The notes under the pieces were generated by a model. It was not told where the DNA came from. It made no database searches and saw nothing but the letters and a program-made list of their open reading frames with translations. Position numbers and translations under genes: made by a program. Source: a virus (lineage: Duplodnaviria > Heunggongvirae > Uroviricota > Caudoviricetes). Taken from it: 52,341 bases of DNA. This document shows, in pieces, positions 4,462-36,138 of the stretch. Position 1 is the stretch's first letter, and each line of letters opens with the position of its first letter. The stretch lies in the IMG/VR virus record IMGVR_UViG_3300013126_000013; one strand, 5' to 3'.

Positions 4462-4875
4462 TTAGTTAGTTGTATTGATGTTATTTATCTCTTCATTCGC
4501 AGCATCAATAGCAGCATTACTTTCTTTATAATAACCTTCATACGCAACAATGATTGCCTGTTGTTGTTGAATGAATCCACGAATATCACTCAAGTTCAAC
4601 ACTAGGTTTTCATACCCCTTGTCAGTCAATCCAAAAAGTACAATGGGTTTACCCTTTTTCGCGAGGTCATTAAAGACTTCTTCATAGTTATCAGGCGTAA
4701 TGATTACCCATTCAATATCACGTGACTTAATTGGATCAGCATACGGTAAAACTAATTCTGGTTTATCAACTGGTTTTGCCGATATCTGAATCTCTTGTAT
4801 CGGTGGCTTACCGCATCCACTAATGAGGAAGAGTGTTAAAAAGCCAAGGGCACTCACTATTAAATGATTTACCAT
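4462..4875 (-). CDS. o-spanin (Rz1-like lipoprotein)
   Basis: Signal peptide with lipobox LISG/C from MVNHL; Pro-rich; overlaps the 3' end of the i-spanin in another frame. Confidence 0.8.
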   Translation of the reverse strand: MVNHLIVSALGFLTLFLISGCGKPPIQEIQISAKPVDKPELVLPYADPIKSRDIEWVIITPDNYEEVFNDLAKKGKPIVLFGLTDKGYENLVLNLSDIRGFIQQQQAIIVAYEGYYKESNAAIDAANEEINNINTTN

Positions 4876-5281
4876 CAGTAGCATTCCTTTCAGCATCAGA
4901 TAAAGCCGCACCGCTCAAAAGCTCGAAACATCTCGCCGCTTTATCTGATGCGCCATTGACCACTCTTTGAACTAGACCTGGCTTCTTTGATGCAAGATAA
5001 GCTAGATCGTGTTCGCTTAAGCGGTCGGACAATTCACGATTTTGTGCTCTCACCGCCGCAAATGATTCATTCACTCTTGTGATTTCAGCGTTTGCAGCAG
5101 CAAAGTTTTGTTGAAGAGTCGCGATCGTCTCCTCATTGGTTTTGACCGCGATCTCTAATTTTGCGTTATTCTCGACTAGTATTGTAATTCGAGCTTGGCT
5201 ATCTTTGTAATACCAATAGAACCCACCAATCATGGTGAGCATAATCGCGCCCATTATAAGATAACCCTTTATTCCTAGCAT
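4820..5281 (-). CDS. i-spanin (Rz-like)
   Basis: N-terminal TM helix, long coiled coil, two C-terminal Cys; directly after the endolysin. Confidence 0.8.
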   Translation of the reverse strand: MLGIKGYLIMGAIMLTMIGGFYWYYKDSQARITILVENNAKLEIAVKTNEETIATLQQNFAAANAEITRVNESFAAVRAQNRELSDRLSEHDLAYLASKKPGLVQRVVNGASDKAARCFELLSGAALSDAERNATDGKSFNSECPWLFNTLPH

Positions 5282-5283
5282 GG

Positions 5284-6159
5284 TTATCCTAGAAGCTTTG
5301 CGAGTGTTTTTGGGCCTGCTACGCCATCAGCGGTCAAGCCATTCTTTGCTTGCCATGATTTGAGCGAAGCTTCAGTGCCAATTCCGAATACACCATCAGC
5401 CTTGAGACCAAGAGCAGCTTGAAGCTTCTTCACAGTTTCACCTTGTGATCCACGCTTCACAGTAGTGGCAGGAGCAGAAGATTCTGTAACTGATGCTTTA
5501 GCAGGAGCTGGAGCAACAGAGACCTTTCCACCAAGGATCGCAAGGGCCTTTTCCCAACGTGCTTTACGATCTGCAAGACCGATGTCACCGCCGTTGATGA
5601 TTTTAGTCATCTTTACGATGTCGCCAGAATCAGCAATCGTATTGAGCTTCTTTGCATTCCAGAACCAGCATGCTGACTCGATTGCACCCTTTTCAGTTGC
5701 AACATATTCAGCTGCCTCTTCTGCTGTCATGTTAACTGTCTTACCAAAGTTAGTATAGTTTTCACGACCCGTGAGTTGCTTCAAGCCACGACCACGGAAT
5801 CTCCAGCCATCGCCTTCTTTTACGTTACCCATCTTTGAGCTACGGAACTCATCCATGTAAACATAGTTAGCAATCTTTTCTGGATTACGTGCATATTCTT
5901 TTGCATTACGCTTTGGCGCTGGCCCAAAATAACGGCCAAACACTTTAAGCAATGTTTCTTCTTTGTAGTTCAAATTCTCTTCAAGATTATTGAAGTTGTT
6001 TGATTCGTGTGCGCACTGAGCAACAAATCCTGCGATGCGATTTGGCGTATTAATTTCATACTTTGGGAAGATTTCCATCATTGCTTTGTACCATGACGAA
6101 ACATTCTTGTTTGTTGGAATCATCGCTGCTAGATGTTCTTCTTTAAATTCAAAACTCAT
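5284..6159 (-). CDS. Endolysin: GH19 lysozyme/chitinase domain plus C-terminal peptidoglycan-binding domain
   Basis: RIAGFVAQCAHES, EENLNY, DGWRFRGRGLKQLTGRENY, TKIINGG; C-terminal LQAALGLKADGVFG...QAKNGLTADGVAGPKT (PG_binding_1-type repeats). Confidence 0.93.
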   Translation of the reverse strand: MSFEFKEEHLAAMIPTNKNVSSWYKAMMEIFPKYEINTPNRIAGFVAQCAHESNNFNNLEENLNYKEETLLKVFGRYFGPAPKRNAKEYARNPEKIANYVYMDEFRSSKMGNVKEGDGWRFRGRGLKQLTGRENYTNFGKTVNMTAEEAAEYVATEKGAIESACWFWNAKKLNTIADSGDIVKMTKIINGGDIGLADRKARWEKALAILGGKVSVAPAPAKASVTESSAPATTVKRGSQGETVKKLQAALGLKADGVFGIGTEASLKSWQAKNGLTADGVAGPKTLAKLLG

Positions 6160-7556: not shown

Positions 7557-7865
7557 TTACCACTTTACCTTATCGGCCCAATACGCAGCAGACATTTTGC
7601 CCTTTGCAATATTCTTTGCATGACGAGCTTTAAACGACTTACGTTTCGCTTTCATACGAGCTGACTCACCTTCTTTTGGTGCACCAGCAGTCTCTGCGCC
7701 TTGTTCACCAAAGCGAATTGTCTTTACTTGATCGCCGTCCTTGGCGACCACGATGTGACTCTTTTCTGGATGAGAAGGTGTTGCCTTTGGCTTATTGAAA
7801 CCCTGGACACCGGCTCTTACGAGGCGAGGATCTTTCTCTTCTATGAACTCTCTGAAACCCTGCAT
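7557..7865 (-). CDS. Basic small protein with a capsid-targeting-like N-terminus
   Basis: Starts MQGFREFIEE; ends KSFKARHAKNIAKGKMSAAYWADKVKW. Confidence 0.7.
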   Translation of the reverse strand: MQGFREFIEEKDPRLVRAGVQGFNKPKATPSHPEKSHIVVAKDGDQVKTIRFGEQGAETAGAPKEGESARMKAKRKSFKARHAKNIAKGKMSAAYWADKVKW

Positions 7866-7866
7866 C

Positions 7867-8457
7867 TTATCCTCCGAACTCGTGGCCAGCAACACGACGC
7901 ATCTGCTTGTTGAACTCTTGTTGTGATGGCTTTTCTTTGTAAAGCTTGATCGAGATTTCTGGGCGTTCTTTACCTTTAATACGCCAGTTATAACCCTTCT
8001 CTTTATGCTCGGCTGAAGTAGTTTTTACAACACGACGTTTGTAGCCAGCTTCCCATGATTCAGCTTCGTCAAGATCAACTTCTTCAGTCTTGTTGTACTT
8101 CAAAGCATGAGCAGCTTTCACTTCGCGATCAGCTACCTTATCCATTGCTTTACCGGCATACTTCCAACGTTTATCAGCTTTAGCTTTGTTTTTGTCTTGA
8201 AGCGCGGCTGATGCATAGTCTCTTAGCTTTTCAGTTGATACCTCGTCGATCTGCTCGACTTCTTCTTGAGCGCTTCTAATTGCTTCTTTTGAAGGATACC
8301 CTTTATCTCCAGGTTTCGCGGGTGTCTCTCCACGTTTTCTCTTCGCGTGAATGTTAGTCCATAGGCCGTTGCCTTCTGTAACTTCGGTTGAACACTCATT
8401 ACAGCAATTAGGGGTACCACAATTTGGATGTTCAAGGAATAGCTTAAATGATTTCAT
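7867..8457 (-). CDS. Modular probable head-internal protein
   Basis: Starts MKSFKLFLE; short modules separated by VTE, IDE, LDE. Confidence 0.7.
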   Translation of the reverse strand: MKSFKLFLEHPNCGTPNCCNECSTEVTEGNGLWTNIHAKRKRGETPAKPGDKGYPSKEAIRSAQEEVEQIDEVSTEKLRDYASAALQDKNKAKADKRWKYAGKAMDKVADREVKAAHALKYNKTEEVDLDEAESWEAGYKRRVVKTTSAEHKEKGYNWRIKGKERPEISIKLYKEKPSQQEFNKQMRRVAGHEFGG

Positions 8458-8762
8458 AACTTACTCTTTTCTGCTTTGTGCGCCTGAGCTGCTTCCATTG
8501 AGTCAAACTCTTTGTGGTATGAACGATCGGCGTTATGTACTGCGTATGTTGCTTTCTTTGGAAACTTGTTGTAGACTTTAGTTACGCGAAGATCTGAAGC
8601 TTCTTCGAGGCGGCGAGCTTCTTCTGCCTCCAGCATACGAACCATTTGTGTCTGACGCATGTGGTGTGCTTCGTTTACACCGCGAGATAGATTGCGCTGA
8701 CGGCGATGAAAGTTAATCGCTTCAGAGAGTTCTTTATCTAATAGTTGTGTTACTTCTGTCAT
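8454..8762 (-). CDS. Hypothetical protein
   Basis: Open frame in the same operon, ATGA-coupled to the next gene. Confidence 0.65.
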   Translation of the reverse strand: MTEVTQLLDKELSEAINFHRRQRNLSRGVNEAHHMRQTQMVRMLEAEEARRLEEASDLRVTKVYNKFPKKATYAVHNADRSYHKEFDSMEAAQAHKAEKSKL

Positions 8763-8773
8763 AATTGGTATCC

Positions 8774-9034
8774 TTATTCTGCTGAATCAAAATCTTCTTC
8801 GTCGGCCATCTCTGACTCCATATAATCAGCAGCACCTGTGATGTAGTCTGTGGCAAGAACGATGTTGGCGATCACATGGCCTGGAAGTTCATCATCATCC
8901 TCGAGAAGAGTATGCAATCTTTTTGCCGCAGCAATAATCATTCTCAACTGAGACTTGGCCATGCCGCCTTCTTGGCCGTATTCACCATCGTTCTCGTCTT
9001 TGGCTTCAGCCAGCATTTCTTTAAAGCTTTTCAT
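8774..9034 (-). CDS. Acidic small protein with a capsid-targeting-like N-terminus
   Basis: Starts MKSFKEMLAE; EGGMAKSQL...LP.HV...ATDYI...DYM. Confidence 0.7.
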   Translation of the reverse strand: MKSFKEMLAEAKDENDGEYGQEGGMAKSQLRMIIAAAKRLHTLLEDDDELPGHVIANIVLATDYITGAADYMESEMADEEDFDSAE

Positions 9035-9043
9035 GATTACCTC

Positions 9044-12000
9044 TTAGTACTTAATGACTGGATTCGGCGTTGAGAAATTCTTCTTACGCATGATGGTCTT
9101 TGCTACGATGTCGATCTCATCATTCTTTTCGTCGTACTTGATTACGACTGGCATGTTGAGGTCTGACTGAAGATCTTTTACTACAAGTTCAGCACCGGCT
9201 TTTCCCTTAAGAGGGTTGCCGTTCTTTGCATAGATCTTTTTGATCAAATCTGCAAGTTCTTTAAGCTTAATCTTTGGTGAGTTGCGATCATCATTCATAC
9301 GCTCACCAAAGTGTTTAGTGAACTCAAAGTCAATCTTGAATTTCTCGAACATACGATCGACAAACTTTTCGAAGTCTTTCATCTTTGATGCGGTGATTTC
9401 AACATCAGCTTCTTCTGACAAAGAACCTTCAACTTCCATCAGAGCTTCAAAGGCCTCGTTGATGCCATCAGTGATCTTTGGCTTCTTTGGTGTACCCTTT
9501 TCGCCGGGAGTTGCGGCTTTATAATTCTGAACAAGAGTATCTGTATTTTCAAATCCAGCGCCATATGCTTCATAGTAAGCTCTAAAGTGCTTCATCTTTT
9601 TTGCACGCTTAAGAGCTGCATCGATGTGCTTTTCGACATGATCTTCATCGCCATCGTTTGATTCTGGCGGAATCACTGGAGTAGGAATAGCCTGTTCAAA
9701 TGCTACACCTTTACGGGTGTGCTTCTTTTCGCCGGAATATTTTTTAAGTAATTTTTTCGTATCAGCAGGGTCGCCAATTGTCTCGTCTGGGGCCGCGTAT
9801 TTAAAATCAAACTCATCTACATCACCATCGAGATCTGTATCAATGTGTTTAACATTATCTTTGTACTGATGTTTGAATGGAACACCGATACCAAGGTGAT
9901 GCTTCACCGACATCTTATCTTCTTTTACGGTCTTAGCCGACGCTATCCAATCCTTAGCAGCTGGGTTTGTTGGAAGAACCTTTGCCCACGTGCTGATCTT
10001 ACGATACACGCCAGTGACTGCACCTTCGAAGTTAGATCCTTCGGAGTTGTCGATGATATACATGCGGTTGCCGAAGAAGTTCTGGAACTTACCAAGGTTC
10101 TTCTGTACACCGTTCCACATCGTCTCGACTTCTGAGTCTGGAAGCGAGCGAGCGCGCAGACGGTTACGAGTCTTTGCGGTGGCGAGGTCGGTGTTAACAA
10201 AGATCATTGCAACTTCGTAGCCAAGCTTCTTTAGTTTCTCAGCTTGCTTCTCGATCTTGTCGTAGTCTTTACCGGTTCCGTCGATTACGAGACCAAGACG
10301 ACCATTCAGTGCAAGATCTTGCTTCTTCGCCGTAAGAGCTTTTGCTTCACCACGAATCTCTTGACCCTTTGCAGAGTAGATGTCTTCTGGGGTTGCCTTA
10401 AGTCCTGCCTTTGCAAGTGCTCTTTCGAAGATATCGTCAGAGTTGATCACTTTGAATCCGAGTGCAGTCAATGCGGTCTTACCTACGATGAACGACTTAC
10501 CGGATCCTGGGCCACCTGCAAGGAATACTGCCTTGAAGATTGATGGGTCGTTAACACCTTCATCAAGTAATGTTTCAAACAAATCGTCTGCAGATTCTTT
10601 AATGCCGTGCATGTCACGGTACTTACTTGCCAACTGACGACCAGTCAGGCCAATATCGTAAGATTTTGCGATATCGAAAGCGTATGAGTTTAGGCTTGAA
10701 CGATTGCCCTTTGATTTGTAGAGTCTATCAAGTGCTTCAAGCGCTCTCTTCATTATCACTTCAGTTGGTGATGGAAAGTGCTTATCTTCCTTCAGACCTT
10801 TTGCAAGGTCTGCGTCTGCAGTTGTGCGAGTCTTACCGCCAGTGATGAACGAATTGACACGTGCATATCCCCACTGTTGCGGAGTAGTTCCTGGACGATG
10901 ACCAGTTCTCCACGCAGCAACACCACGGTCAAATACTTTCTTCAGAGTGCCGTACGAGATGCCAGACTTCTCGGCTTTTTTCTTAAGACCTTCCATTGCC
11001 TTTGCTTCGTCGAGATTAATTGAGTTATTGATATCTTCTGCAATCATAATCATTTCGAGAAGATCTGCATCATTCTCTACTTCGATTTCTTCTTGACGAA
11101 CAATATGGCGGAATGCACGGAAACGGCGATCATATTTAAGCGATCCATCTCCATTATACATCATGTGATAACGGCGAGTATGGACAGATGGCTTCGTCTT
11201 AGCAGTAGCATCTCCAGGTGCAGGCTTATATGCAGCTGGATTATCGTCGTCCATCTTTGCATGTTTATTGAAGTGAGCTTTACGCTTTGTTGCAGTCGAC
11301 TTACTTAGACCTGCATAGTAGTCTTCATCAAGGAAAGACTCGAACATCTGATCGATATCCTCTTTCTGCTGGTGCAGCGAAGCAACTCTTTGTAGTTCAG
11401 CCTTGCGTACCTTTGGAAGAAGTCGAGCAGCGATCTTCGCAATTGCGCCTTTTCTCTTCTCGACTTTTTGATCGATCATGATCTTTTCTGAAGGAGAAAG
11501 GTCTGCGTAATTCGCGCCTCGCTCACCTGCTACTCTTTTACGGATAAGTTCAATTGCTTTCTTACGTGCTCTCACTGCAAGCTTTTGATTCGAAGCAATC
11601 CGATTCTTTAATCTCTCACGAGCCGCTTCCATCTTGCGCTCGTACTTTCTCATTACGAGAGCGCGCTTTCTACGCTGGGCATATGAGAGAACATATTCGT
11701 CAAGCTCAACATCTTCTGATAGTTTCATACCAGCTCTTACCATATCGTAGATGTCTTGAGCATGTGATTGAAGCTTCTTTGGAAGGCCGGATTTAAACTT
11801 TTCTTCTTCACCCTTCGAAGCGGCATCTCTCATCTTCGATGCCGACATGCCTTCAACACCATCAGCATCAGGATCTCTTTCACCTGCAGAAACAACGGCG
11901 ATTGATTTCATCGTGTAGTCTTTACCGTTGTACTTGTTAAGAAGAGTTTCAAACTCTTGTACGCGATCTTGTCCAACCACAAGCGTAACATCATCATACT

Positions 12001-12334
12001 TCGACTGAAGTTGTTTCATGAGGTCAATGATAGTTTTTGCAGGTGAAGACTGAATGATACTGCCAAATGCTTCTTTGGCAATCATGACTTTATCAGAATA
12101 TGAAAGTGGATTCTTTTTTGCGTCTTGTGACTGGCTCAAGTAAATTTCGGCTTTGCCACCGATTTTACGAGCAACGTCTTGAACCTTTTTCACTAGCTTT
12201 TCATGACCAATCGTAGGAGGGTTCATTCTTCCCCAAGAGATAACGACTTTTCTCGATGAAGCTTCCTTAAGAACTGGATTTACTTCAATAACGTTCTTGT
12301 TAAGCTTCTCGTCCTTTTTAGACTTCTTTTCCAT
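9044..12334 (-). CDS. 1096-aa multidomain polyprotein: HIGH-family nucleotidyltransferase, basic modules (DUF5824-like), P-loop kinase, C-terminal putative RNase fold
   Basis: GRMNPPTIGH (aa 35-44); AGGPGSGKS (aa 606-614); TKHFGERM (aa 1006-1013); domain boundaries marked by LDE/LKE/VKE/LSE. Confidence 0.85.
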   Translation of the reverse strand: MEKKSKKDEKLNKNVIEVNPVLKEASSRKVVISWGRMNPPTIGHEKLVKKVQDVARKIGGKAEIYLSQSQDAKKNPLSYSDKVMIAKEAFGSIIQSSPAKTIIDLMKQLQSKYDDVTLVVGQDRVQEFETLLNKYNGKDYTMKSIAVVSAGERDPDADGVEGMSASKMRDAASKGEEEKFKSGLPKKLQSHAQDIYDMVRAGMKLSEDVELDEYVLSYAQRRKRALVMRKYERKMEAARERLKNRIASNQKLAVRARKKAIELIRKRVAGERGANYADLSPSEKIMIDQKVEKRKGAIAKIAARLLPKVRKAELQRVASLHQQKEDIDQMFESFLDEDYYAGLSKSTATKRKAHFNKHAKMDDDNPAAYKPAPGDATAKTKPSVHTRRYHMMYNGDGSLKYDRRFRAFRHIVRQEEIEVENDADLLEMIMIAEDINNSINLDEAKAMEGLKKKAEKSGISYGTLKKVFDRGVAAWRTGHRPGTTPQQWGYARVNSFITGGKTRTTADADLAKGLKEDKHFPSPTEVIMKRALEALDRLYKSKGNRSSLNSYAFDIAKSYDIGLTGRQLASKYRDMHGIKESADDLFETLLDEGVNDPSIFKAVFLAGGPGSGKSFIVGKTALTALGFKVINSDDIFERALAKAGLKATPEDIYSAKGQEIRGEAKALTAKKQDLALNGRLGLVIDGTGKDYDKIEKQAEKLKKLGYEVAMIFVNTDLATAKTRNRLRARSLPDSEVETMWNGVQKNLGKFQNFFGNRMYIIDNSEGSNFEGAVTGVYRKISTWAKVLPTNPAAKDWIASAKTVKEDKMSVKHHLGIGVPFKHQYKDNVKHIDTDLDGDVDEFDFKYAAPDETIGDPADTKKLLKKYSGEKKHTRKGVAFEQAIPTPVIPPESNDGDEDHVEKHIDAALKRAKKMKHFRAYYEAYGAGFENTDTLVQNYKAATPGEKGTPKKPKITDGINEAFEALMEVEGSLSEEADVEITASKMKDFEKFVDRMFEKFKIDFEFTKHFGERMNDDRNSPKIKLKELADLIKKIYAKNGNPLKGKAGAELVVKDLQSDLNMPVVIKYDEKNDEIDIVAKTIMRKKNFSTPNPVIKY

Positions 12335-12390
12335 AAGATTCTCCTCACATCGTGGGTTTGCCTTAGCCTGACCACAAGCTTCTATTTAAC

Positions 12391-13071
12391 CTATTTATAG
12401 TTTTGCTGAAATGAATCGATGAATTTGTAGTTTACAGCAGCCGACTTACTCCAAAGCGTCGATTCACGAAGCCAACCAATAGCTGGAGTTGGATCCATAA
12501 TTGCAAGAGGAGTAGCAGTAATTCGTTGATGCCGAATAAAATATGCGTTATCGATACACCCAAGAATACCCTTGGTTTCTATTTCTTTCACCATCGCTCT
12601 TGCAGTATTTGGAGTCAACGCATATGCATGAGCTCCTTCATGCGCGTCTAATTCTCTTACACCCTGAGGAGGACCTGCCTTTATGTGGTCATATCTTGAA
12701 GTATCTGTTAACTTATAGCCGAGTACTACGATTCTATCATCTGGTATATCAACGCTTGGATTGTGCAGCATGATTGCATCATGTTCGAGTACCACTGCTG
12801 CCTCATTACCGTCTGCGATCTTTTTCCATATTGCTGCATGACCAGCAGAACAACATTGTGGATTATTCGGTCTTGTATCGTGTTGAAATAAATGAAGAGT
12901 AGCTGTATTGATCTTAGTTTTTGACCAAGCATCATAAACGGACATGTTCGAATAACCTTCGAAATACTCCCAATCTAATCCAACTGCTTCACAGGACTTA
13001 GCACAAATCCTTGCGTACTCTCTTGATATTGGATTATCAATCGTTAAAATATAAGCTCTAGTTGGTTTCAT
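12391..13071 (-). CDS. Glycosyltransferase family 25-like
   Basis: RAYILTI...WEYFEG...CCSAGHAAIW..I......VVLEHDA...GAHAYALTP..A...ID; start taken at MKPTR. Confidence 0.75.
   Translation of the reverse strand: MKPTRAYILTIDNPISREYARICAKSCEAVGLDWEYFEGYSNMSVYDAWSKTKINTATLHLFQHDTRPNNPQCCSAGHAAIWKKIADGNEAAVVLEHDAIMLHNPSVDIPDDRIVVLGYKLTDTSRYDHIKAGPPQGVRELDAHEGAHAYALTPNTARAMVKEIETKGILGCIDNAYFIRHQRITATPLAIMDPTPAIGWLRESTLWSKSAAVNYKFIDSFQQNYK
12392..12399 (-). promoter_or_regulatory. T4-type late promoter
   Basis: Exact TATAAATA 58 nt upstream of the polyprotein start. Confidence 0.8.
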
Positions 13072-13615
13072 ATTCGATAAGGGCCATCTGCACTGGGTTA
13101 TTATGATAAGCATACTTGTATGTTTCTACAATCTTAAATCCTTCACACGTAGAAGCGTATGCGCTTGGTACACCATACATCGCAAAGTCGTCGATAAGAA
13201 TGTTTTTCAACTTCAGATGTTTAGCCATTTGTATATCATTGATTGCGCCATGTACACTGTGATCGCCATCGATGTTAATAATATCTACACCTTCTGGAAA
13301 TTGAAGAGTGCCATTCTTAAGACCTTTATAGTAATCTACAGTATTCATTTCAATATAGCTGAAACGATTTCCAAATTTTTCTTTCAGAGATTCAACCGCT
13401 ACCCGAGTATAAGGATGAGCTCCAATATCAATAGAGGTGACCTTTACATCTTCAAACATCGTCATAATGATAGCAGCCGAATGACCCGCATTTGTACCGA
13501 TTTCAAAAATATGTTGAAAGTTTGTGCGAGCTTTAACATCTTTCCAGAGATTAAGAACCTCAGTAGATGGTGTCATGTGGCCTTCAGTCGCGTGAGGCAA
13601 AAATGATAAATCCAT
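13058..13615 (-). CDS. Class I SAM-dependent methyltransferase (Methyltransf_24-like)
   Basis: IFEIGTNAGHS (motif I), VTSIDI, INIDGDHS, ILIDD. Confidence 0.8.
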   Translation of the reverse strand: MDLSFLPHATEGHMTPSTEVLNLWKDVKARTNFQHIFEIGTNAGHSAAIIMTMFEDVKVTSIDIGAHPYTRVAVESLKEKFGNRFSYIEMNTVDYYKGLKNGTLQFPEGVDIINIDGDHSVHGAINDIQMAKHLKLKNILIDDFAMYGVPSAYASTCEGFKIVETYKYAYHNNPVQMALIEYETN

Positions 13616-13629
13616 AATAACTCCTTCAT

Positions 13630-13658
13630 AAAACAAAAGGAGAGCCGAAACTCTCCTT
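13630..13658 (-). terminator. Intrinsic terminator
   Basis: AAGGAGAG-tttcgg-CTCTCCTT followed by TTGTTTT on the minus strand. Confidence 0.75.
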
Positions 13659-13684
13659 GACTCAATTCTATTTATTATAATCGA

Positions 13685-13825
13685 TCAGTACCAACGGATT
13701 TTGCGGCGATCAAGTTCTTGCATTCTGCGCTCAAGGTCGACGTGATCGTATGACTCTGCAAGATATTTGTGTGCCCAAGATTTTTCGTCTAATCGTTCGA
13801 AAAATTTAACGATTTTCTTCCACAT
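13685..13825 (-). CDS. 46-aa DUF3563-like protein
   Basis: Manual translation: MWKKIVKFFERLDEKSWAHKYLAESYDHVDLERRMQELDRRKIRWY; the YLAES.D..DLERRM..LDR pattern is recalled for DUF3563. Confidence 0.6.
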   Translation of the reverse strand: MWKKIVKFFERLDEKSWAHKYLAESYDHVDLERRMQELDRRKIRWY

Positions 13826-13880
13826 CACTTGCCACCTTTATTCTTTTCAATGGGTTTAAAATATGAATGATCTGGATCTA

Positions 13881-14111
13881 TCATTTGCGACCTGCCTTGT
13901 AAATGTTAGCAGCCATATTTGTCACATAATCTAGCGATTCATGTGGATACTCAAACTTGAGTGAGTGAGCAAGCTCTTTAATTTTTCTTTTGTCTGATTC
14001 TTCAGAAGGAAGTGCCTTTAGCATAAACTCGATTGAGCGAAGGATTCCATTTGATATTGAGATGCTTAATGGGGTAAGCATTTTAGCAGATTCATTTACT
14101 GCAGCGAACAT
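13881..14111 (-). CDS. Hypothetical protein
   Basis: ORF with GGAG upstream, on the same strand as its neighbours. Confidence 0.55.
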   Translation of the reverse strand: MFAAVNESAKMLTPLSISISNGILRSIEFMLKALPSEESDKRKIKELAHSLKFEYPHESLDYVTNMAANIYKAGRK

Positions 14112-14207
14112 TTCTTTTTCTCCGTATACTGTACCTTTGTCATACGGATATATTTATCACAAAAAGTCGACAGTTTACATTGACATTTAGGAATAGCCGG
14201 TAGTCAC

Positions 14208-15500
14208 TTAAGTAACTTCTTGCCAACTCATTGAACCAAGTACATCATCTCCAGAACCATTTGAACAACACGCTAAGGTAAATGTGAAATAAGTCCCAGT
14301 AAAACTGTTTCTCTCTAACTGGTACTTAAATAAATCACTTTGTGAAGGAATTGATCCGGTTGATTGCGAAGTCGTAGCAAAATATCCTGTATCCGTATCT
14401 TCACCGCCGCTCATTGCTGTGCCAGTGATATTATATTGAACGTTACTATCAGCTAAATCAACCCAAGTGCCAGCCGTGATTGTTGCGTCTTTTGTTAATT
14501 TATAACGATAGTTGCCGTTAGTCACCCCAAGTAATGAAAAACTTGTAGGTATTACTATACAATCTGGTGTAGTCGATTTTAATCTAATAGAGATGATTGG
14601 ATAAAATGTATTTGCGGAAGTTAGATCTCTGGCTGCATTTGTCGCTAAACCTAATGATCTAGATCTGCCACGTATCTCGTATCCACCTTCTGAAATTACT
14701 GTTGAACATACTTGTTTAAGTGTTGAATTTGATGCAGTTGCTCCAATGTTTTCTATCTCAAACCTTAATGGTAAACACGCAGTGGTAATATATGTCGTCG
14801 TGATTATGTTTGAGTGATGAAAACTGTGACAATGTACAAAAGCACCGTTTATAACAAAGCCCATTCTAACAGTGCCTAAGCCCAACCATTCTAAATCTGT
14901 GAACAAAATCTGTGCTTTAGATATATCTAAGGTAAGACCACTTGGTCCAGTACCATCAAGTTTATCAATATTCCAATCGGCCTTTTCAGCAATAGTGTTA
15001 ACGACACTACCGGTCACTGAACTACGTTCTACAAAGCGAATATTCGATCCATTTAATTCAAGGTAGTGCCCATTGTTGGTGCCATAATATCCAACACGTT
15101 GTCTTAAATTGGCCTTTGCCGCATTCATTACAAATGTTGTTAAGATCAGTAAACTTTTACCTGGCTGATAAGCAAATACTCTTTTTGATTCTCTGTATAC
15201 ATAGTCACCAGATGCTGTACCTATGCTAAGATCTACAAGTCCTTGATCAGAGTTAAACGTAGCTGTGCTACTGCCGCCAGCGGTTGCTGTTGCAAACTTG
15301 CCATTATCTGAATACCTATGAAAGCTATCGAACAATGTAAATGGATTTGAAACTCTTGCTCGGCCAAACGCATCAACTGCAACACCAGTTGGGTTCGACG
15401 AGCCAACTAGATTACCATACTGATCGGCTAACATTACTGTTTCAAACAGCGTCTTATTATCACTGGTGTACTGATGAGTATTTTTGTTAAACTGTGCCAT
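14208..15500 (-). CDS. Beta-rich probable virion structural protein
   Basis: Starts MAQFNK (TAATG overlap); DAFGRARVSNPFTLFD, YQPGKS, WLGLGTVRMGF; Thr/Ser/Gly-rich. Confidence 0.65.
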   Translation of the reverse strand: MAQFNKNTHQYTSDNKTLFETVMLADQYGNLVGSSNPTGVAVDAFGRARVSNPFTLFDSFHRYSDNGKFATATAGGSSTATFNSDQGLVDLSIGTASGDYVYRESKRVFAYQPGKSLLILTTFVMNAAKANLRQRVGYYGTNNGHYLELNGSNIRFVERSSVTGSVVNTIAEKADWNIDKLDGTGPSGLTLDISKAQILFTDLEWLGLGTVRMGFVINGAFVHCHSFHHSNIITTTYITTACLPLRFEIENIGATASNSTLKQVCSTVISEGGYEIRGRSRSLGLATNAARDLTSANTFYPIISIRLKSTTPDCIVIPTSFSLLGVTNGNYRYKLTKDATITAGTWVDLADSNVQYNITGTAMSGGEDTDTGYFATTSQSTGSIPSQSDLFKYQLERNSFTGTYFTFTLACCSNGSGDDVLGSMSWQEVT

Positions 15501-16732
15501 TAACGCTGCCATCCTTTGATAATTTCAGGCGAAAAGTTTGCACGGCTAAACTGAAGTCGATCGACTAGTTTTACTGCATTTTTGCCCATGTGATCGATTA
15601 CAACAAATCCTTCTTGCTCTGTGACTTTATAGCCATCAGCAGTTTTAAGGAACGTTCCAATCTGTTTTGCTTTATCTAGTTTTCGTACAATGAGATGCTT
15701 GGCATCAACAATGAGATTATACATATCAAAGATTTTCACAATTTCAGTTTTAGGTGTATTTGCGAAGTACTTCATGACTTCAGCACGTTTCGCTTCACCT
15801 GCGGCCTTTGCCTTATCTGTTGCTTTCTTATCGATCTCTTTCTGATAGAAGTCATGCACGTACTTCGTAAGACCATCGACAAACTGAGTTGTATTACCAA
15901 TACGTTCGCCGACTCGCACCTTTGAGTTAATATATGCTTTTACTCGAATGAGCAGATCGTCATTGTCAGAAATACCATCAAGAGAAGATCTCTTCAAGCC
16001 AGAAAAGATCTTTCCAGCTTTCGACAAGAGTTCAGTAATTTCTTTCGTTTCAGCGGCGTTGAAGTTTGCCGAACCAGAAACGTCTTTATAGGATGCATCT
16101 ACTGACCAGACCGATTTTGTTTTCTTGAGGCCGCTTGCGATCTCCTCTCCAAAACTCGCTGACATTGATTCAAAAGAGTTTCCTCTGTATGTAGTGTGCC
16201 AGACCACACCGATTCTTGAGGCAAGGATTTCACGAGCAAGTTGGCTGTTCTTCGGTATCGCGTAAACAATCGTGTTAGGATGGAAAGTAATATACGGTTC
16301 TCCATCAATATCCACTTCTCGTATATCTTCTTTCGAATATAAGAAGTCACCTTGCACCACTCCTGTAATGCCGAGCTTTGAAAGTTCTTCAAGAGCAACT
16401 TTCAGCTTAGCGTTCAAATCACCTGATGTATCTGCATCAATATCAGCTGGTGTCTTATACACCTTTGGGTCCTTATTGAAGATACCCTTCTTTGCCACAA
16501 AGAATTTACCATCGCTTGGATCAATGCCGGCAAAGACTGCAGGAGCACCATCCCACTTGATCGTTACGTTAACAGACTTTGCAGAGCTTCCTGCTAGCAT
16601 GTCACGAAGAGAACGTAGATAGTTAATAGATTGACGAACACCTTCGACGCCAGCATTTAAGATGTTATCCTCGAGATGCTCCATGTGAGTGTTCTTTGAT
16701 TCTACGAGAAACCGGTCGAATGATAGCATCAT
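15500..16732 (-). CDS. DUF6267-like protein with covalent nucleotidyltransferase (ligase-like) motifs
   Basis: KNTHMEHLED N-terminus; TIKWDG (motif I), VQGDF (III), EQEGFVV (IV), VKLVDR (V). Confidence 0.7.
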   Translation of the reverse strand: MMLSFDRFLVESKNTHMEHLEDNILNAGVEGVRQSINYLRSLRDMLAGSSAKSVNVTIKWDGAPAVFAGIDPSDGKFFVAKKGIFNKDPKVYKTPADIDADTSGDLNAKLKVALEELSKLGITGVVQGDFLYSKEDIREVDIDGEPYITFHPNTIVYAIPKNSQLAREILASRIGVVWHTTYRGNSFESMSASFGEEIASGLKKTKSVWSVDASYKDVSGSANFNAAETKEITELLSKAGKIFSGLKRSSLDGISDNDDLLIRVKAYINSKVRVGERIGNTTQFVDGLTKYVHDFYQKEIDKKATDKAKAAGEAKRAEVMKYFANTPKTEIVKIFDMYNLIVDAKHLIVRKLDKAKQIGTFLKTADGYKVTEQEGFVVIDHMGKNAVKLVDRLQFSRANFSPEIIKGWQR

Positions 16733-17334
16733 ACTTTCCTTACTGATCCGTCATGGTGAACGTGATATGCCTCGAACGATATGTCCGGATACTGCTTTGC
16801 AAGAGCCTTAAACATCGTAATGTTTGACATCGCGTCATCAAAGAAGCGTACTCTCTCGTACTCTCCCTTGCGTAGATATTTATGGAATATGAAGCGTTTG
16901 TTCTTTGCGCTCGATCCTAGACCTAAGTTACCAGCTCTTTCAACATACACCTTATCTATATCTATTCCATATCTACGGAATGTGTCAAGGAACTTTTTCT
17001 TATCGTCGAAGTCCGATCTAGCAGTCACGATAATAACTCTAGACCCAGCATTTACCGCATTGCGTATAATTGCTTTTGCCTTTTGAACCATCTTCATGAT
17101 AGGAACAGAGGTATTCTGGAAGATCTCAGCTGAAGTAAATTCACCGAAGTCGTATGACTCGCCATCCTTAAGCTTATATGTATTAAAAGCTTGGTTATCA
17201 AGAGACTGAACTACTTTTCCGTCCTTCACTACCTTAACTAAAGCCTTAGTCTGAAAAAGTGTCTCATCTATGTCAAAGATCGTTAGACCTTTACCACGAG
17301 CTTGTTCTGTTATAAACGACTTAAATGATAGCAT
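16729..17334 (-). CDS. HAD-superfamily phosphatase
   Basis: IFDIDETL (DxDxT), IVTAR, K, FFDD; starts MLSFKSFITE. Confidence 0.85.
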   Translation of the reverse strand: MLSFKSFITEQARGKGLTIFDIDETLFQTKALVKVVKDGKVVQSLDNQAFNTYKLKDGESYDFGEFTSAEIFQNTSVPIMKMVQKAKAIIRNAVNAGSRVIIVTARSDFDDKKKFLDTFRRYGIDIDKVYVERAGNLGLGSSAKNKRFIFHKYLRKGEYERVRFFDDAMSNITMFKALAKQYPDISFEAYHVHHDGSVRKV

Positions 17335-18416
17335 TATGATACAACCCTAAATTTAATGTCGTTTGGATACTCACCACCCTTTGAGTTTCGAATCTCAATA
17401 AGATATTTTTGATGAGCGTTTTCGCAATGAATGCGAGTTGATTTCGATGTGATTCCTGGATAGTCGATTCGTGTCACTTTTATGCTTTGAGATAACTCAT
17501 CGAGTTTAGCACGGTCGAGCCAGAACACTTTCCAACCACCAGGTTTTTTACGAACATAGAAGTAGTTCAAGCCCCATACTTGCTCAAAGATCTTTTGAAT
17601 TTTTGAGGAATCTACCGCAGGGGTCTTGAATTTCTTGCGAGTATCAGGATTGATATTATTTCGGATATCAAACCCGCTTTGAACTTTATTCAGATCAACT
17701 CCAAATGTACGAAGAAATTCTGCGCCTTCAGAATCTTCGACAAGATCACCCTTTGAATTGAATAAACTTTCACCGCCCGGCCACGCACTTACAGTTGCAC
17801 CGCTTATATCCTTAAGCGAGATGTACCATTTCTTTCCTGTGCTATCAGTAAGAACGATATCGCCAATAACAGCATTCAAATCTTCAAGTGGTATACCAGT
17901 CTTTCGTGTCGATCCCTTGCGCTGATTTACTTTTACAATTTCCGTATTTGCGAATGGTGGGTAAGCTTCTTCCATCTGTCTTACGAGCTTAACAAAGCTT
18001 TGTTCAGACGCGCCCATGAAAAACATATTGAGGTTTTCAACTGTTTTAGTCTCGAAGTTTTCACCTTTGTTTGCCCCGCGAGCAATGACAGCATCAACGA
18101 TTACACCCTTATAGGTAAACGTATAGCTTGGGTATTTTGAACTGTTCGGAGATATATCGTTGTATTTAGCGTCGAAGATCTTATTACCGCGTAAACCAGC
18201 TTTCAGATGAGCTACAAATGATTCAGATGTATCAACGGTCTTTACGATCAATTGCATTCTGAATTCGCGCGTAGTTTTATCTTTACCAGCCTTTCCCATC
18301 GGCAAAGCTGGCGCCACTTGATAGTTCTTGTTTTTCCCGATATTATTCAAAAGATCGGCGATCTCTTTATAAACATCAGATTTTGATTTAGCAAAGCTAG
18401 AAAAGGGCTTAACCAT
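17334..18416 (-). CDS. Putative PD-(D/E)xK-family nuclease
   Basis: KGENFE helix, then IGDIVL and YISLK (D...SxK variant of the catalytic triad). Confidence 0.55.
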   Translation of the reverse strand: MVKPFSSFAKSKSDVYKEIADLLNNIGKNKNYQVAPALPMGKAGKDKTTREFRMQLIVKTVDTSESFVAHLKAGLRGNKIFDAKYNDISPNSSKYPSYTFTYKGVIVDAVIARGANKGENFETKTVENLNMFFMGASEQSFVKLVRQMEEAYPPFANTEIVKVNQRKGSTRKTGIPLEDLNAVIGDIVLTDSTGKKWYISLKDISGATVSAWPGGESLFNSKGDLVEDSEGAEFLRTFGVDLNKVQSGFDIRNNINPDTRKKFKTPAVDSSKIQKIFEQVWGLNYFYVRKKPGGWKVFWLDRAKLDELSQSIKVTRIDYPGITSKSTRIHCENAHQKYLIEIRNSKGGEYPNDIKFRVVS

Positions 18417-18440: not shown

Positions 18441-18448
18441 TATTTATA
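18441..18448 (-). promoter_or_regulatory. T4-type late promoter
   Basis: Exact TATAAATA 25 nt upstream of the 18416 start. Confidence 0.8.
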
Positions 18449-20108: not shown

Positions 20109-20756
20109 GTGGTAGAGCATTCGCCATATACATATTTAGTGGGTTGGACCAAACATGATCTTTGGTACTATGGCGTGCAGTATAATTCAAAGGCTCGACC
20201 AGAGAATCTTTGGACTACATATTTTACATCTTCTAAGATAGTCAAGACCATAAGAGAAAAATATGGCGAACCTGATGTAATTGAAGTACGAAAAATCTTT
20301 AGTAATAAAGACGACGCAAGATTGTGGGAACATAAAGTCTTACGTAGAATTGGTGCAAGAAAGTCTAAACGATGGTTGAACCAAACCGACAATTTACATC
20401 ATTATCCTAGAAGTCCAAAATCACCTTGGAATAAGGGTAAAAAACTATCGGCCGAGCAAAAAGAAAAGATCCGTGATAGTCTTAAAGGTCGAACTCTGTC
20501 AGACGAACACAAAGCAAAGATGTCAGTTGCACAACAAAAACGTGACAAGTCTATATCAGATGAAACCAGACTCAAAATGAGAAATTCAAAGGTCGGAAAG
20601 AATACGACACCCGAGACAAAGGAAAAGATGAGAATTGCAAAACTTGGGATAAAGAAAGAACTAGTTAAATGCCCATACTGTGATAAAGGTGTCTCACCAC
20701 ATCTTTTTAATCGCTGGCACAACAAAAAATGCAAATTTTTTGAAGCGATTACGTAA
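20109..20756 (+). mobile_element. Free-standing Seg-like GIY-YIG homing endonuclease with NUMOD3 repeats
   Basis: YTYLVGW...WYYGV (GIY-YIG variant), YFTSS, E..WE..L, LN; repeated S.E.K.K(M/I)(R/S) NUMOD3 units; C-terminal CPYC...RWH...C; opposite strand to its neighbours. Confidence 0.85.
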
Positions 20757-29988: not shown

Positions 29989-30921
29989 TCACTTACCCTT
30001 CTTCATGGCAGCGCGACGTTGCTGCCGGTTTAATTGTTGCATAGGTTTCACTATATCATCATTTTCTTTTGGTGTCAAATAGTTCTTTTGATTAGACGCA
30101 GCGCTTGCAGTCGGAGAAGTCTGAATCGCTGCCATTGCTGCAAGCGAACCACCAAAGGTATATGAACCAACGTGCTTCAACTGGATCCATGGGCAAAGCC
30201 ATACGTTAATACCAATTGCTCGAGCGTATTGACTAAACATGTAGTCTTCTGACAGATAACGCTTACTCTTCGGATCAATCACGCAGTCAAAGAACGCAGT
30301 GATTTCACGACTGCCGTCAAAGTGTTCGGTGCGTACGTGGTCTGGAATATAGCTAAGTTCTGGGTATGCTGCTGCATACTTCTCGAATACACTACGATGA
30401 ATCATCATGAAACCATTACCGCCTTCACGGATCTTTACGGGCTCATCAATTCGAAACGAAGTAGAGTTCTCATCGGGATTAAAGACATAATCGCCGACAA
30501 AGTTGTCAAGTTGGAACGGATTCGGGTCAGCAAATCCTTTTTCAACTGCAGTCTTAATCTTTTCCCAGGCGATCGTCTTTTTCGGATACGCCCCGGTAAT
30601 TACGCCATACTCATCTGCCGATTCACAAAGATGCATAAGAGTATAGACATCTTTATAATGGAATCCAATATCAGAATCGATAAACATAAGATGTGTGTAG
30701 TCTGACCGAAGGAATTCATCGACACAATAGTTACGAGCACGAGTAATGAGAGACTCATTAAACAAGTAGTAGAACTTTACATCAATATCATACTTAGCAC
30801 AACTCATCGCCAAATCATTTGTCGATTTAGTATACAACCCAGCGCAAGCACCGCCGTACATAGGTGTAGCAATAAAGAGCTTCTTCTTACGAAGCTTTTC
30901 GATTTCAATCTTAATTTCCAT
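29989..30921 (-). CDS. GT-A fold (GT2-like) glycosyltransferase
   Basis: LFIATPMYGG, ESLITRARN, LMFIDSDI (DxD), GFMMIHR.VF, YLSEDY.F, L.HVG. Confidence 0.7.
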   Translation of the reverse strand: MEIKIEIEKLRKKKLFIATPMYGGACAGLYTKSTNDLAMSCAKYDIDVKFYYLFNESLITRARNYCVDEFLRSDYTHLMFIDSDIGFHYKDVYTLMHLCESADEYGVITGAYPKKTIAWEKIKTAVEKGFADPNPFQLDNFVGDYVFNPDENSTSFRIDEPVKIREGGNGFMMIHRSVFEKYAAAYPELSYIPDHVRTEHFDGSREITAFFDCVIDPKSKRYLSEDYMFSQYARAIGINVWLCPWIQLKHVGSYTFGGSLAAMAAIQTSPTASAASNQKNYLTPKENDDIVKPMQQLNRQQRRAAMKKGK

Positions 30922-31343
30922 TATTTACCTTTCACTGGTCTTGAATTCTCAAGTTGCCCTTTAATAAATTTGGCGCATTGTTTCGCAGATAGCGCATGTT
31001 CATCCGTGGCGATAAGTCGGTCATCTACACCAATGCCACGAATGACTGAAGCTGAAAGCATCATAGCCGAAGCCATAATCATGCATACTTGGTGAAGATC
31101 TGATCCATCTTCACCGTTATCATAGTCATGCCCTCGCTCAAAATCCTCAACGTGTCGCTTCAGACTATCAATCATCTGCTGCCATGGGAGACCTTTCTCC
31201 CAATTACGATCCGAGTATTTTTTCGCGCCGTACTCAAGAGAAGCTGCTGCTGCAGCGATTGCTTCAAGAGGAATGTGCCGAGTATATGGCATACCGAGAG
31301 CTTCGCGAACAGCTCCGGTTTCAGTCTCATTATATTTATTCAT
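30921..31343 (-). CDS. dNTP diphosphohydrolase (DUF5664, dATP/dGTP diphosphohydrolase-like)
   Basis: LEYGAKKYSDRNWEKG.PW..MIDSL.RH...D...G..LH. Confidence 0.8.
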   Translation of the reverse strand: MNKYNETETGAVREALGMPYTRHIPLEAIAAAAASLEYGAKKYSDRNWEKGLPWQQMIDSLKRHVEDFERGHDYDNGEDGSDLHQVCMIMASAMMLSASVIRGIGVDDRLIATDEHALSAKQCAKFIKGQLENSRPVKGK

Positions 31344-31978
31344 CGTGTAGGTTGTTCCATATCATTTTCGAGTCGAGCAATTGTTTGCAAACGAAGAATG
31401 TCCGCAGCAATATCGAAGCGGCTGTCATGATGGACAAATGTGCTGTTCCAATATTCCTCGTCAGCAAGAGGAATAAACCCGTTCTTCTTTGGGAAATTCA
31501 GCTTTGCATCAATCCATGTACGAGTATCACGAACAAGCCAAAACTTCAGAAGTTCACCGATTTCATCTTGGCGGCCAAAAACAGATGCCCATCTCTGGAG
31601 AATAATAGGATCGAATGAATTTGATCGAGACCACCAGTAGTTGATCTTACCTGCTTCCTTCAGATATTCGATGAAGTTGTCGATGAAAGTTTCGGCTCGT
31701 ATATCTGATTTGCTTGGGCGTAGTACTTTCTTTGCTTCTTCAGACTGAGACAACCACCAATCAAGATCACGCTGAGTATATTTAGCACCATGCTCTTGAA
31801 CTTGGTGAGCCATTTCAAGTTTGTCTTTGCGAGCAAGACTTACGATTTCTTCTAGAGTGTACGGGTTGTCAGAAGTAAAACGATCCCAATCAAATGCTAC
31901 ATAAGAGCATTCAAGCATTGGAATTTGAAACACATCCTGACCAAGGGTTTCAAAGTCGAAAATAAAGTGTTGGTTCAT
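31340..31978 (-). CDS. dexA: 3'-5' exonuclease A (DexA-like, DEDD)
   Basis: FIFDFETLG, WWLSQS.EA, WSRSNSFD..IL, FW.VRD.RT, HDS..D...D. Confidence 0.85.
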   Translation of the reverse strand: MNQHFIFDFETLGQDVFQIPMLECSYVAFDWDRFTSDNPYTLEEIVSLARKDKLEMAHQVQEHGAKYTQRDLDWWLSQSEEAKKVLRPSKSDIRAETFIDNFIEYLKEAGKINYWWSRSNSFDPIILQRWASVFGRQDEIGELLKFWLVRDTRTWIDAKLNFPKKNGFIPLADEEYWNSTFVHHDSRFDIAADILRLQTIARLENDMEQPTR

Positions 31979-33177
31979 TCGAAAAAGCTCTCAAGGGTGT
32001 TTTCAGCAGCGGTGAATTCCTCTGTCTGAGTTCCATTATACTGCAAAATATAATCAGTGTCAACCATTTTTCTTTGGCCATTGAGCACAGCAAGAACTTC
32101 CGTCGCCATATCAGTAGCAGTCTGAACAGGAACGTTTTGGCAGATGTGGTTAGCATTCTTTGGGCTAGCATCTACAAGCTCAAAGTTCTCCGGAAGACCC
32201 ATAATAGTCATGGCTTCGCGGTAGGTAATGAAGCGATCTTCATCAGGATGTGTAAGCATGATCGGATAGTGTCCTACAAAAGCGCCGATGCGATCCTTAG
32301 GGACAATTACACCTCTCCGCATGATGCTTCCGCCTTCTTCAAGCTTCTTGTACTTATAGAGGCACTTCTCAACTTCATCAGGGAATCCATTTGCTTTCAT
32401 CCAATCAGCAACTTGCTTGTAGTTGTGACCCATCTTTTCGATGTAACCGAAAGCGTCATTGCCACGAGCTGACGACGGATCAATCTCATGTGAGTGCTGT
32501 ACGTGAGTACGACCACCATGAATAGCCTCGAGGATGTACTTGTAGTACGGATTTTCAGATGGCTTCTTCTTATTGATCGGCTCATGCTGGAAGTTAGACT
32601 TCACATTACGAATGACTTCTTCAATTGGAGTGTAAGGACGATTGTAGTAATGCAAAAGTGGAGTCTGATTACCTTTCCAGAAGAAGTAGAAAGAACGTTC
32701 ACGAATCTGTGGAACGCCATGAAGCAAAGACTTCGTACGATAGACTGTCATCGTGTAGCCGTTCTCTTGTCCGATCTTTTTCAGGTTCTCACGAACGTTC
32801 TTACCGATCTTACCAGCAAAGCCGGGAGCATTCTCTCCCCAGAACACTTTTGGCTTATATTCGCCAAGGATGTACTTTGCAGTAATGTCCATCCACTTGT
32901 TGTTTTCATTATGATCGCCATAGCCATGGGACATCATAGACAACCCCGCGCACGGGCACACGGACGCAACCACATCCGCGCGCTCGGAAGGTGCTTGGCC
33001 TTTATCAAGAACGTAGTATGGAATAAGATTTTCGTAGTGATTCAGAATATGAGAGTCGTTTGCAGCAAAAGCTTCATATGACATGAAGTGGATAGGAGGA
33101 GAGCCGAAAGCTCTTTCCGATCCAATGGTTTCGCCGCCGATAAGAGGAACGATTGAAGCGTGGGTGAAGTTACTCAT
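31975..33177 (-). CDS. Divergent C5-cytosine DNA methyltransferase homolog with a C-terminal clamp peptide
   Basis: Motif IV CPCAGLS, VI GENAP, VIII PQIRER, IX ITYREAMTIMGLP, X ICQNVP; motif I is non-canonical (VPLIGG); ends NTLESFFE. Confidence 0.8.
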   Translation of the reverse strand: MSNFTHASIVPLIGGETIGSERAFGSPPIHFMSYEAFAANDSHILNHYENLIPYYVLDKGQAPSERADVVASVCPCAGLSMMSHGYGDHNENNKWMDITAKYILGEYKPKVFWGENAPGFAGKIGKNVRENLKKIGQENGYTMTVYRTKSLLHGVPQIRERSFYFFWKGNQTPLLHYYNRPYTPIEEVIRNVKSNFQHEPINKKKPSENPYYKYILEAIHGGRTHVQHSHEIDPSSARGNDAFGYIEKMGHNYKQVADWMKANGFPDEVEKCLYKYKKLEEGGSIMRRGVIVPKDRIGAFVGHYPIMLTHPDEDRFITYREAMTIMGLPENFELVDASPKNANHICQNVPVQTATDMATEVLAVLNGQRKMVDTDYILQYNGTQTEEFTAAENTLESFFE

Positions 33178-35280: not shown

Positions 35281-36137
35281 TTCAACTCCATAGTGTACGC
35301 CGAACGGCACATATCTTTCAAATCATGATCAATCTTAACATACTTTGATACAGTGTCAACAAGAAGTTTCGCTGGATCTCCAGAACGTCGAGGACCGAAC
35401 TCTACAGGAAAGTCGATACCAGTGACTTCCTTCATTGTATTTATGACCTCAAGATTTGAATATCCACGGCCAGAACCGATGCATTCGTATTTTGAATTTG
35501 CAGCGAGAGGAACACTTCTTACAATCGCTTCAGCAAGATCAATAACATGTACATAATCACGAACACACGTACCATCGTGTGTATCATAATCATTTCCAAA
35601 GATTACCATCTTGTCTCTCTTGCCAGCTGCAGCTTCTGCAGCAATTCGAATGATGTGGCTCGCTGGATATGGTTGGCCGAGCTCTCCGTCATTGCCCGCA
35701 ACGTTAAAAAACCGAAAGATAGAATATTCGGGCGCGATCTGTCGTACTGCTTCTTCGGCAATGATCTTCGACTTAGCGTAGGGTGAAATAGGATCGAACG
35801 CGCCGCCGGTCGAAGCAAAGATAAAATGATTGTACTTGAGACTCTGAAGAAGCTTAAGTGTACCATTCGTATTTACATCATAGTAAGACTCAGGCATTCT
35901 CATCGACTCTTCGACCGAAATAAGCGCAGCACAGTGAATTACAGCGTCATAATGATCAGTAATGTGAATATGTTCAGTGATATCTCCGTGGTGAATCGCA
36001 TTCACCATATGCTGAATCATTCCAGTATTCGGAGTAATGCGCTGATCGAGAGTATCGATAGTATAACCCTTACTATGAAGAGCTTTTACGATATGTGATC
36101 CAATATATCCACTTGCGCCAGTTACAAGTACTTTCAT
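35277..36137 (-). CDS. galE: UDP-glucose 4-epimerase (extended SDR)
   Basis: VTGASGYIGSH, VIHCAALISV.ES, FAST, PYAKSK, RFFNVAG, DGTCVRDYVHV.DLA. Confidence 0.92.
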   Translation of the reverse strand: MKVLVTGASGYIGSHIVKALHSKGYTIDTLDQRITPNTGMIQHMVNAIHHGDITEHIHITDHYDAVIHCAALISVEESMRMPESYYDVNTNGTLKLLQSLKYNHFIFASTGGAFDPISPYAKSKIIAEEAVRQIAPEYSIFRFFNVAGNDGELGQPYPASHIIRIAAEAAAGKRDKMVIFGNDYDTHDGTCVRDYVHVIDLAEAIVRSVPLAANSKYECIGSGRGYSNLEVINTMKEVTGIDFPVEFGPRRSGDPAKLLVDTVSKYVKIDHDLKDMCRSAYTMELK

Positions 36138-36138
36138 G

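Follow-up and report, generated by a model that had tools for sequence, protein, structure and literature searches.

A putative head-packaged nucleic-acid end-repair kit built around DUF6267 in a T4-like phage

Phage T4 mends tRNA cut by the anticodon nuclease PrrC with the polynucleotide kinase-phosphatase Pnkp (PseT) and the RNA ligase Rnl1, and its RNA repair relies on enzymes synthesised after infection. T4 also packs proteins such as IPI-III and Alt into its head by means of a ten-residue capsid-targeting sequence (CTS), which the protease gp21 cleaves after L/I-x-E (PMC9026906). The locus described here resembles both systems in part. It lies in a 52,341-nucleotide stretch from the IMG/VR virus record IMGVR_UViG_3300013126_000013 (the window, i.e. 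the whole stretch of DNA that was analysed) and comprises a HAD phosphatase, a ligase-like protein of the DUF6267 family, a kinase domain within a late polyprotein and a nuclease-like open reading frame (ORF), all on the minus strand. The initial annotation had read the first three as a dedicated system, carried in the head and injected, that reverses tRNA or rRNA cleavage by abortive-infection RNases. Its three enzyme assignments (Pnk-like kinase, 3'-phosphatase-like HAD and ligase) agree with our fold comparisons, HHalign alignments and motifs, and the three chemistries of the T4 pair are predicted here as well. Unlike in T4, the kinase and phosphatase are encoded by separate genes, the ligase belongs to a family other than Rnl1, the kinase lacks Arg38, and the genes appear to be late ones with head leaders that are not conserved as a trio. 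With IPI-III and Alt they share the ten-residue leader ending in Glu, the predicted L/I-x-E cleavage and the late promoter, but the cargo would consist of nucleic-acid end enzymes, one of them cut from a polyprotein.

The ligase-like gene (15500..16732, minus strand; Pfam E 5e-111) encodes a 410-residue protein with a capsid-targeting-like leader, which we interpret as a divergent ATP-grasp covalent nucleotidyltransferase with RNA-ligase architecture. K59-x-D61-G62, K82, D129, E374-G375 and K388 are invariant among 119 diverse homologues, and nucleotidyltransferase motifs I (KxDG), III, IV (EGxV) and V (K) are all present in order. In the AlphaFold model (predicted local distance difference test score, pLDDT, 94) a helical bundle of about 130 residues forms an insert that separates motif IIIa from motif IV. 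The OB domain that follows motif V in ATP-dependent DNA ligases is absent from the model, where one helix follows K388 and the chain ends 22 residues past motif V. A fold search of 48,161 chains placed RNA ligases in the six best positions (Z 7.2-8.3, root-mean-square deviation (rmsd) about 4, 173-202 residues aligned), namely REL1 (8.3), Rnl5 (8.2), Trl1 (7.9 and 7.5) and T4 Rnl2 (7.3 and 7.2), with DNA ligases at 6.4 or below. A search of BFVD gave an RNA ligase match at E 1.8e-4, and the named matches there were mostly RNA ligases. Sequence searches of the PDB returned nothing significant, and Foldseek found no PDB match at E<=0.001, with ligases recurring near the top. The protein is not an Rnl1, as shown by the lack of a PF09511 match and by an HHalign value of 0.4% to T4 RnlA. 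With TbREL1 (1xdn), Naegleria Rnl5 (5cot), fungal Trl1 and T4 Rnl2 it shares the nucleotidyltransferase core, motifs I, Ia, III, IV and V and the lack of an OB domain; it differs from them in its low identity (10-16%), the helical insert, an Asp in motif III and the short end after motif V. Membership of DUF6267 in the covalent nucleotidyltransferase (ligase/capping) superfamily is thus well supported by motifs and model, and we predict that the protein forms Lys59-AMP and joins 5'-phosphate to 3'-OH ends.

Relatives of this gene are abundant. They occur in more than 450 sequenced records of marine T4-like phages (456 among isolates), are near-core in cyanomyoviruses and number 2,676 at the level of 50%-identity clusters; isolates that carry them are Kyanoviridae-type phages, e.g. 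C48C1, DLP_6, Melnitz, HTVC008M and cyanomyoviruses. Two variants were observed. In S-PM2 (NC_006820; L084 8007-9786) DUF6267 is split over two annotated ORFs, possibly by a sequencing frameshift, while it is whole in LN828717 and fused to a HIGH domain in A0A0M6VVW4. S-CREM2 gp87 (L220 2391-3278) and many other cyanophage matches represent a leaderless form of about 295 residues in which the helical insert is apparently much shorter.

The HAD gene (16729..17334, minus strand) encodes 201 residues that also begin with a capsid-targeting-like leader (phrog_415, E 2.5e-10). Its motifs DIDET, TAR, K146 and DD are invariant in 30 homologues except for E24. The key residues of the T4 Pnkp phosphatase are Asp165, Asp167, Ser211, Lys258 and Asp278 (PMC3592404); their equivalents D21, D23, T104, K146 and D167 are all invariant. 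The closest solved fold to the model (pLDDT 89.5) is the T4 Pnkp 3'-phosphatase 5uj0 (Z 13.9, rmsd 2.7, 133 residues aligned), and the top three folds are all Pnkp (T4 Pnkp 13.9 and 13.2, Pnkp1 4xrp 13.3), with other HADs at 11.9 or below. No member of the HAD alignment matched the Swiss-army-knife or PNKP HAD models of Pfam. Since the matched catalytic residues are general features common to many HADs, we say only that the enzyme may act on RNA 3' ends. An NT5C-type HAD was considered as a substitute in phages that lack this gene and was rejected, as the NT5C-like genes of genomes G001, G007 and G008 are leaderless and far from the ligase; HTVC008M alone has such a gene inside the cargo block.

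The kinase comprises residues 593-805 (9920..10558, minus strand) of a 1096-residue late polyprotein (9044..12334, minus strand) in which many L/I-x-E sites separate the domains. It is a P-loop domain like T4 Pnk, zeta and AAA_33, begins directly after LDE, a predicted prohead-protease site, and aligns with T4 PseT at 94.6% in HHalign (E 7e-8); the best sequence matches of its profile in the PDB are adenylate kinases (E ~1e-3). Five of the six residues essential in the T4 kinase (PMC2831316) are kept, with K20, S21, D40, D92 and R134 of the domain corresponding to Lys15, Ser16, Asp35, Asp85 and Arg126. The first polyprotein domain is a HIGH (HxGH) nucleotidyltransferase of the phage 'cytidyltransferase/NMNAT-like' family (11714..12253, minus strand; phrog_3041, E 7e-91). 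Its match to PF01467 is below cut-off, its PDB matches are weak and PPAT-like, and none is to NMNAT. A DUF5824 segment (10808..10978, minus strand; Pfam E 2.7e-19) lies between the two. The C-terminal domain of about 120 residues (9047-9409, minus strand) corresponds to phrog_14518 and persists in many relatives, including ones without the kinase. In the jumbo enterophages RaK2, PBECO4 and pEa_SNUABM_12 (L214-L216) the HIGH domain stands alone beside an annotated DNA methyltransferase, and no DUF6267 is found in the genome.

The sequence supports late expression of the HAD and ligase. A T4-type late promoter (TATAAATA, 18441..18448, minus strand) lies upstream of their operon, the first gene of which is a 360-residue ORF (17334..18416, minus strand), probably PD-(D/E)xK nuclease-like by a motif reading only (E..D..SLK). 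This ORF had no match in Pfam, PHROG or NCBIfam, and its homologues adjoin the ligase in many relatives. Its stop codon overlaps the ATG of the HAD gene, whose own stop overlaps the ATG of the ligase; these overlaps, together with motifs and leaders, confirm the coupled, leader-bearing pair first annotated. The cluster is less compact than had been thought. Kinase, HAD and ligase are all present, but the kinase lies about 5 kb downstream of the ligase, beyond a structural gene, a methyltransferase and a glycosyltransferase, and has a promoter of its own (12392..12399, minus strand; ATAAATA at 12392-12398, the preceding T taken from the last codons of the upstream ORF); the HIGH domain had gone unmentioned. 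The window contains 24 copies of ATAAATA, where 9.8 would be expected.

Packaging of these proteins in the head is probable and well supported by sequence, an inference drawn from leaders, the virion proteomes of homologues and conserved Glu boundaries. The starts MLSFKSFITE (HAD) and MMLSFDRFLVE (ligase) fit the capsid-targeting pattern, which is found at the N-terminus of 66 of 119 ligase homologues and of none of the 35 replication and metabolism genes in the window. The N-terminus of the polyprotein itself is not a typical leader. The 45 distinct homologues of the kinase without exception start directly after Glu (in 40 of them after L/I-x-E); 20 of the 45 are stand-alone proteins, most with the leader alone in front. 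This gives strong comparative support to release of the kinase by the protease at LDE. In Atu_ph07, AUZ94865.1 (CDS 53 by count) has a 43%-identical kinase after VTE. The virion proteome of that phage contained 31 peptides of gp53 (87 kDa), most of them in a band of 21-22 kDa proteins; the preparation was purified with polyethylene glycol and the peptides were not allocated to domains (PMC6102473). The kinase polyprotein of Atu_ph07 adjoins paralogous domains with a YRGM motif (L221 1-4578, gp53-55). Homologues of the HIGH domain have been detected in virions of S-CREM2 (PMC10665884), S-SCSM1 (PMC9602691) and S-SZBM1 (PMC9146016). These cyanomyovirus proteins (S-CREM2 gp154, 33% identical to the domain here, S-SCSM1 ORF91 and S-SZBM1_140) are usually encoded beside DUF6267, whereas in our phage the domain forms one chain with DUF5824, the kinase and other domains. 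For the cyanomyovirus proteins the literature proposes synthesis of nicotinamide adenine dinucleotide (NAD), without recognising the adjoining ligase. Taken together, the late promoters, leaders, Glu boundaries and Atu_ph07 virion data uphold the late expression, probable packaging and kinase release proposed in the initial annotation.

Based on these observations we favour, at slightly less than even confidence, an injected, modular end-repair kit built around DUF6267. The end-repair part of this reading follows from the nearest solved relative of each enzyme, which is in every case a nucleic-acid end-repair enzyme. Further points in its favour are the coupling of HAD and ligase, their adjacency in relatives, the presence of the ligase near most kinase loci, and the ligase fusions to the kinase and HAD that are described below. 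The nuclease-like protein, HAD, ligase and polyprotein would be produced late in infection as head cargo and drawn into the prohead, where the protease would trim them after L/I-x-E and free the kinase and HIGH domains. The trimmed cargo would then be injected along with the DNA, as leaders and homologues' virion proteomes suggest. DUF6267 would be the constant, sealing core, with kinase and HAD as optional add-ons that make 5'-OH and 3'-phosphate ends ligatable; other phages would have one of the two, or a nuclease or Pol-beta-like domain in their place. Having both, this lineage may be capable of the full heal-and-seal chemistry before any phage gene is expressed. The logic is that of eukaryotic single-strand break repair (PNKP, Pol beta and Lig3), with 5'-kinase, 3'-phosphatase, optional gap filler and ligase, but the likeness is an analogy only; DUF6267 lacks both an OB domain and a DNA-binding domain. 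For the substrate we give similar odds to RNA cut by the host and to nicks in the phage DNA as it enters. The architecture of the ligase points to RNA; the nuclease and Pol-beta-like partners point to DNA, as do the separate Rnl1 of relatives and our expectation that a few dozen injected molecules would suit one genome better than a tRNA pool. It is a more tentative suggestion, and on balance a doubtful one, that such a capsid-loaded kit serves aquatic T4-like phages as an injected counter-defence, mending breaks made by host nucleases or oxidation in RNA or the incoming genome before expression begins.

Several observations weigh against the end-repair kit. The ligase Z-scores, at about 8, are middling, though in agreement with the motifs and with the named BFVD matches, which are mostly RNA ligases. 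In the kinase, Arg38, which binds the acceptor 3'-phosphate in T4, is replaced by an invariant Phe43; polynucleotide substrates are still possible, since mammalian Pnkp also has no counterpart of Arg38 (PMC2831316). The DUF6267 homologues S-CREM2 gp87 and S-SZBM1 141, both leaderless, were undetected in the two cyanophage virion proteomes, and by this evidence DUF6267 can work unpackaged. In S-SZBM1 the HIGH protein S-SZBM1_140, which has a leader, was among the virion proteins detected, unlike the leaderless ligase; this suggests that the leader tracks with packaging, in a small sample, and that the ligase is not always packaged. End repair also leaves unexplained the HIGH domain, which is the constant partner of DUF6267, and fusions or adjacency within a cargo block can be accounted for by co-packaging alone.

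A further objection concerns co-occurrence, which gave no support to the idea of a conserved three-part system. Neighbourhoods were counted at loci flanked by 7 kb or more on each side, near-duplicates included. Of 20 ligase loci, 20 have the HIGH domain, 4 the kinase and 1 the HAD; at 22 kinase loci the ligase is found within 10 kb in 14 cases, the HIGH domain nearby in 17 and the HAD in one, a near-identical contig; and the ligase is present at five of six HAD loci, the kinase at none. HAD-ligase adjacency is kept in most loci whose HAD is 74-99% identical, and at one locus with a 94%-identical ligase (L004) the nuclease-like gene lies directly against the ligase, with no HAD. By a loose motif test, a nuclease-like gene is also the commonest directly upstream of the ligase. 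Among isolates, the ligase is present in 456 records, the kinase in 14 and the HAD in 1. Among 25 whole records, a biased and redundant sample with many partial records, 20 have the ligase, 12 the kinase family, 5 the HAD and none both kinase and HAD. The kinase is present in five and the HAD in one of 10 complete ligase-bearing genomes, and all three in none. The trio is confined to near-identical genomes and is plainly no fixed unit. Most fusions of the ligase join it to the HIGH domain, in either order, and one (P0127) joins it to the kinase; A0A6J5MBE6 (915 residues) gives a match to the HAD model and to the ligase model, and the C-terminal extension of the ligase P0230 looks Pol-beta-like by eye.

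It is possible, but rather unlikely, that these proteins are packaged together and function separately: the HIGH domain and kinase would serve NAD or nucleotide metabolism in the manner of NadR, the HAD would be a nucleotidase, and DUF6267 would adenylylate or cap some other target with the HIGH enzyme. In NadR a HIGH domain and a P-loop kinase are joined (PMC9503650); the kinase here shares a chain with the HIGH domain and across loci is near it more often than near the ligase. The invariable ligase-HIGH link with its many fusions, the adenylate kinase matches and the many unrelated leader-bearing proteins of the block also fit separate roles. Against them, Pnk phosphatases are the closest folds of the HAD by 1.3-2 Z units, the kinase retains the general-base Asp of Pnk, and the HIGH domain, which is only weakly PPAT-like with no NMNAT match, occurs without the ligase in jumbo phages.

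The dedicated three-part system, a special case of the end-repair kit in which tRNA or rRNA is mended after cleavage by abortive-infection RNases, we consider improbable. The architecture of the ligase, with RNA ligases ranked first and no OB domain, speaks for it, as does the presence and probable packaging of all three enzymes in this phage; T4 Pnkp, the nearest relative of the HAD, also opens 2',3'-cyclic phosphates (PMC3592404). It is opposed by the absence of the trio from every complete genome, and by the ordinary Rnl1 encoded elsewhere in seven IMG/VR relatives, in two cases adjoining the DNA ligase and a Pnk-type HAD that has no leader. T4 copes with enzymes made after infection, no tRNA genes were found in the window, and cargo proteins amount to about 20-200 copies per head (PMC9026906). 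Least likely of all is that DUF6267 chiefly replaces, inside the cell, the T4 gp30 DNA ligase that marine T4-like phages lack, and that its leaders are incidental: S-PM2, S-CREM2, HTVC008M, C48C1 and G008 do have DUF6267 with neither PF01068 (gp30-type) nor Rnl1, the family is near-core in cyanomyoviruses and some homologues are leaderless, but DUF6267 lacks an OB domain, carries a leader and an upstream late promoter here, and is found alongside a normal DNA ligase in G001-G004, G006, G007, G014 and DLP_6. The generalisation that DUF6267 phages have no other ligase is true of cyanophages and HTVC008M and is contradicted in the closest relatives of our phage.

In the window, where the major capsid protein, scaffold, prohead protease, gp43, UvsX, gp41 and primase of a T4-like (Kyanoviridae-like) phage are recognisable from translations, the cargo block is located between gp41 and the primase and contains many short genes whose products start with F-x-x-F-x-x-E. 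Small ORFs that overlap the genes discussed in other frames were counted as non-genes. PADLOC gave no match and NCBIfam weak generic matches only. The genes between the ligase operon and the polyprotein (12391-13636, minus strand) include a GT25-like glycosyltransferase, which recurs there in many relatives, and a Methyltransf_24 gene. Downstream of the polyprotein (7557-9034, minus strand) are more small ORFs of no known family, which begin with capsid-targeting-like sequences and contain repeated L/I-x-E sites. At 40739-41859 (minus strand) another HIGH cytidylyltransferase, resembling TagD by eye, is coupled to a further HAD, and both are leaderless. By eye, 29989-38141 (minus strand) encodes glycosyltransferases, UDP-galactopyranose mutase, GalE, a cytosine-methylase-like ORF, dCMP deaminase, a dCMP hydroxymethylase-like ORF and a dNMP kinase, similar to the glycosylated-cytosine clusters treated in PMC13326640. 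An endolysin with a peptidoglycan-binding tail, followed by two spanin-like genes, was likewise recognised at 4462-6159 (minus strand). On the opposite strand, 20109-20756 (plus) is a GIY-YIG homing endonuclease-like ORF with basic repeats, and plus-strand ATAAATA motifs lie at 20072 and 20764.

The individual chemistries and CTS cargo were already known. DUF6267 is named in no paper of the literature searched; its assignment to the ligase superfamily is new with respect to that literature, in which its packaging with end-healing enzymes was likewise not found. The assignment suggests how to assay directly a gene that is among the most frequent of the unknown ones in ocean and freshwater phages, and the ligase may have unusual substrate properties that would make it a useful reagent. 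All phage RNA repair that we know of is made after infection. If the end-repair kit is real, nucleic-acid repair by capsid-loaded enzymes would join IPI* and Alt among the few injected counter-defences.

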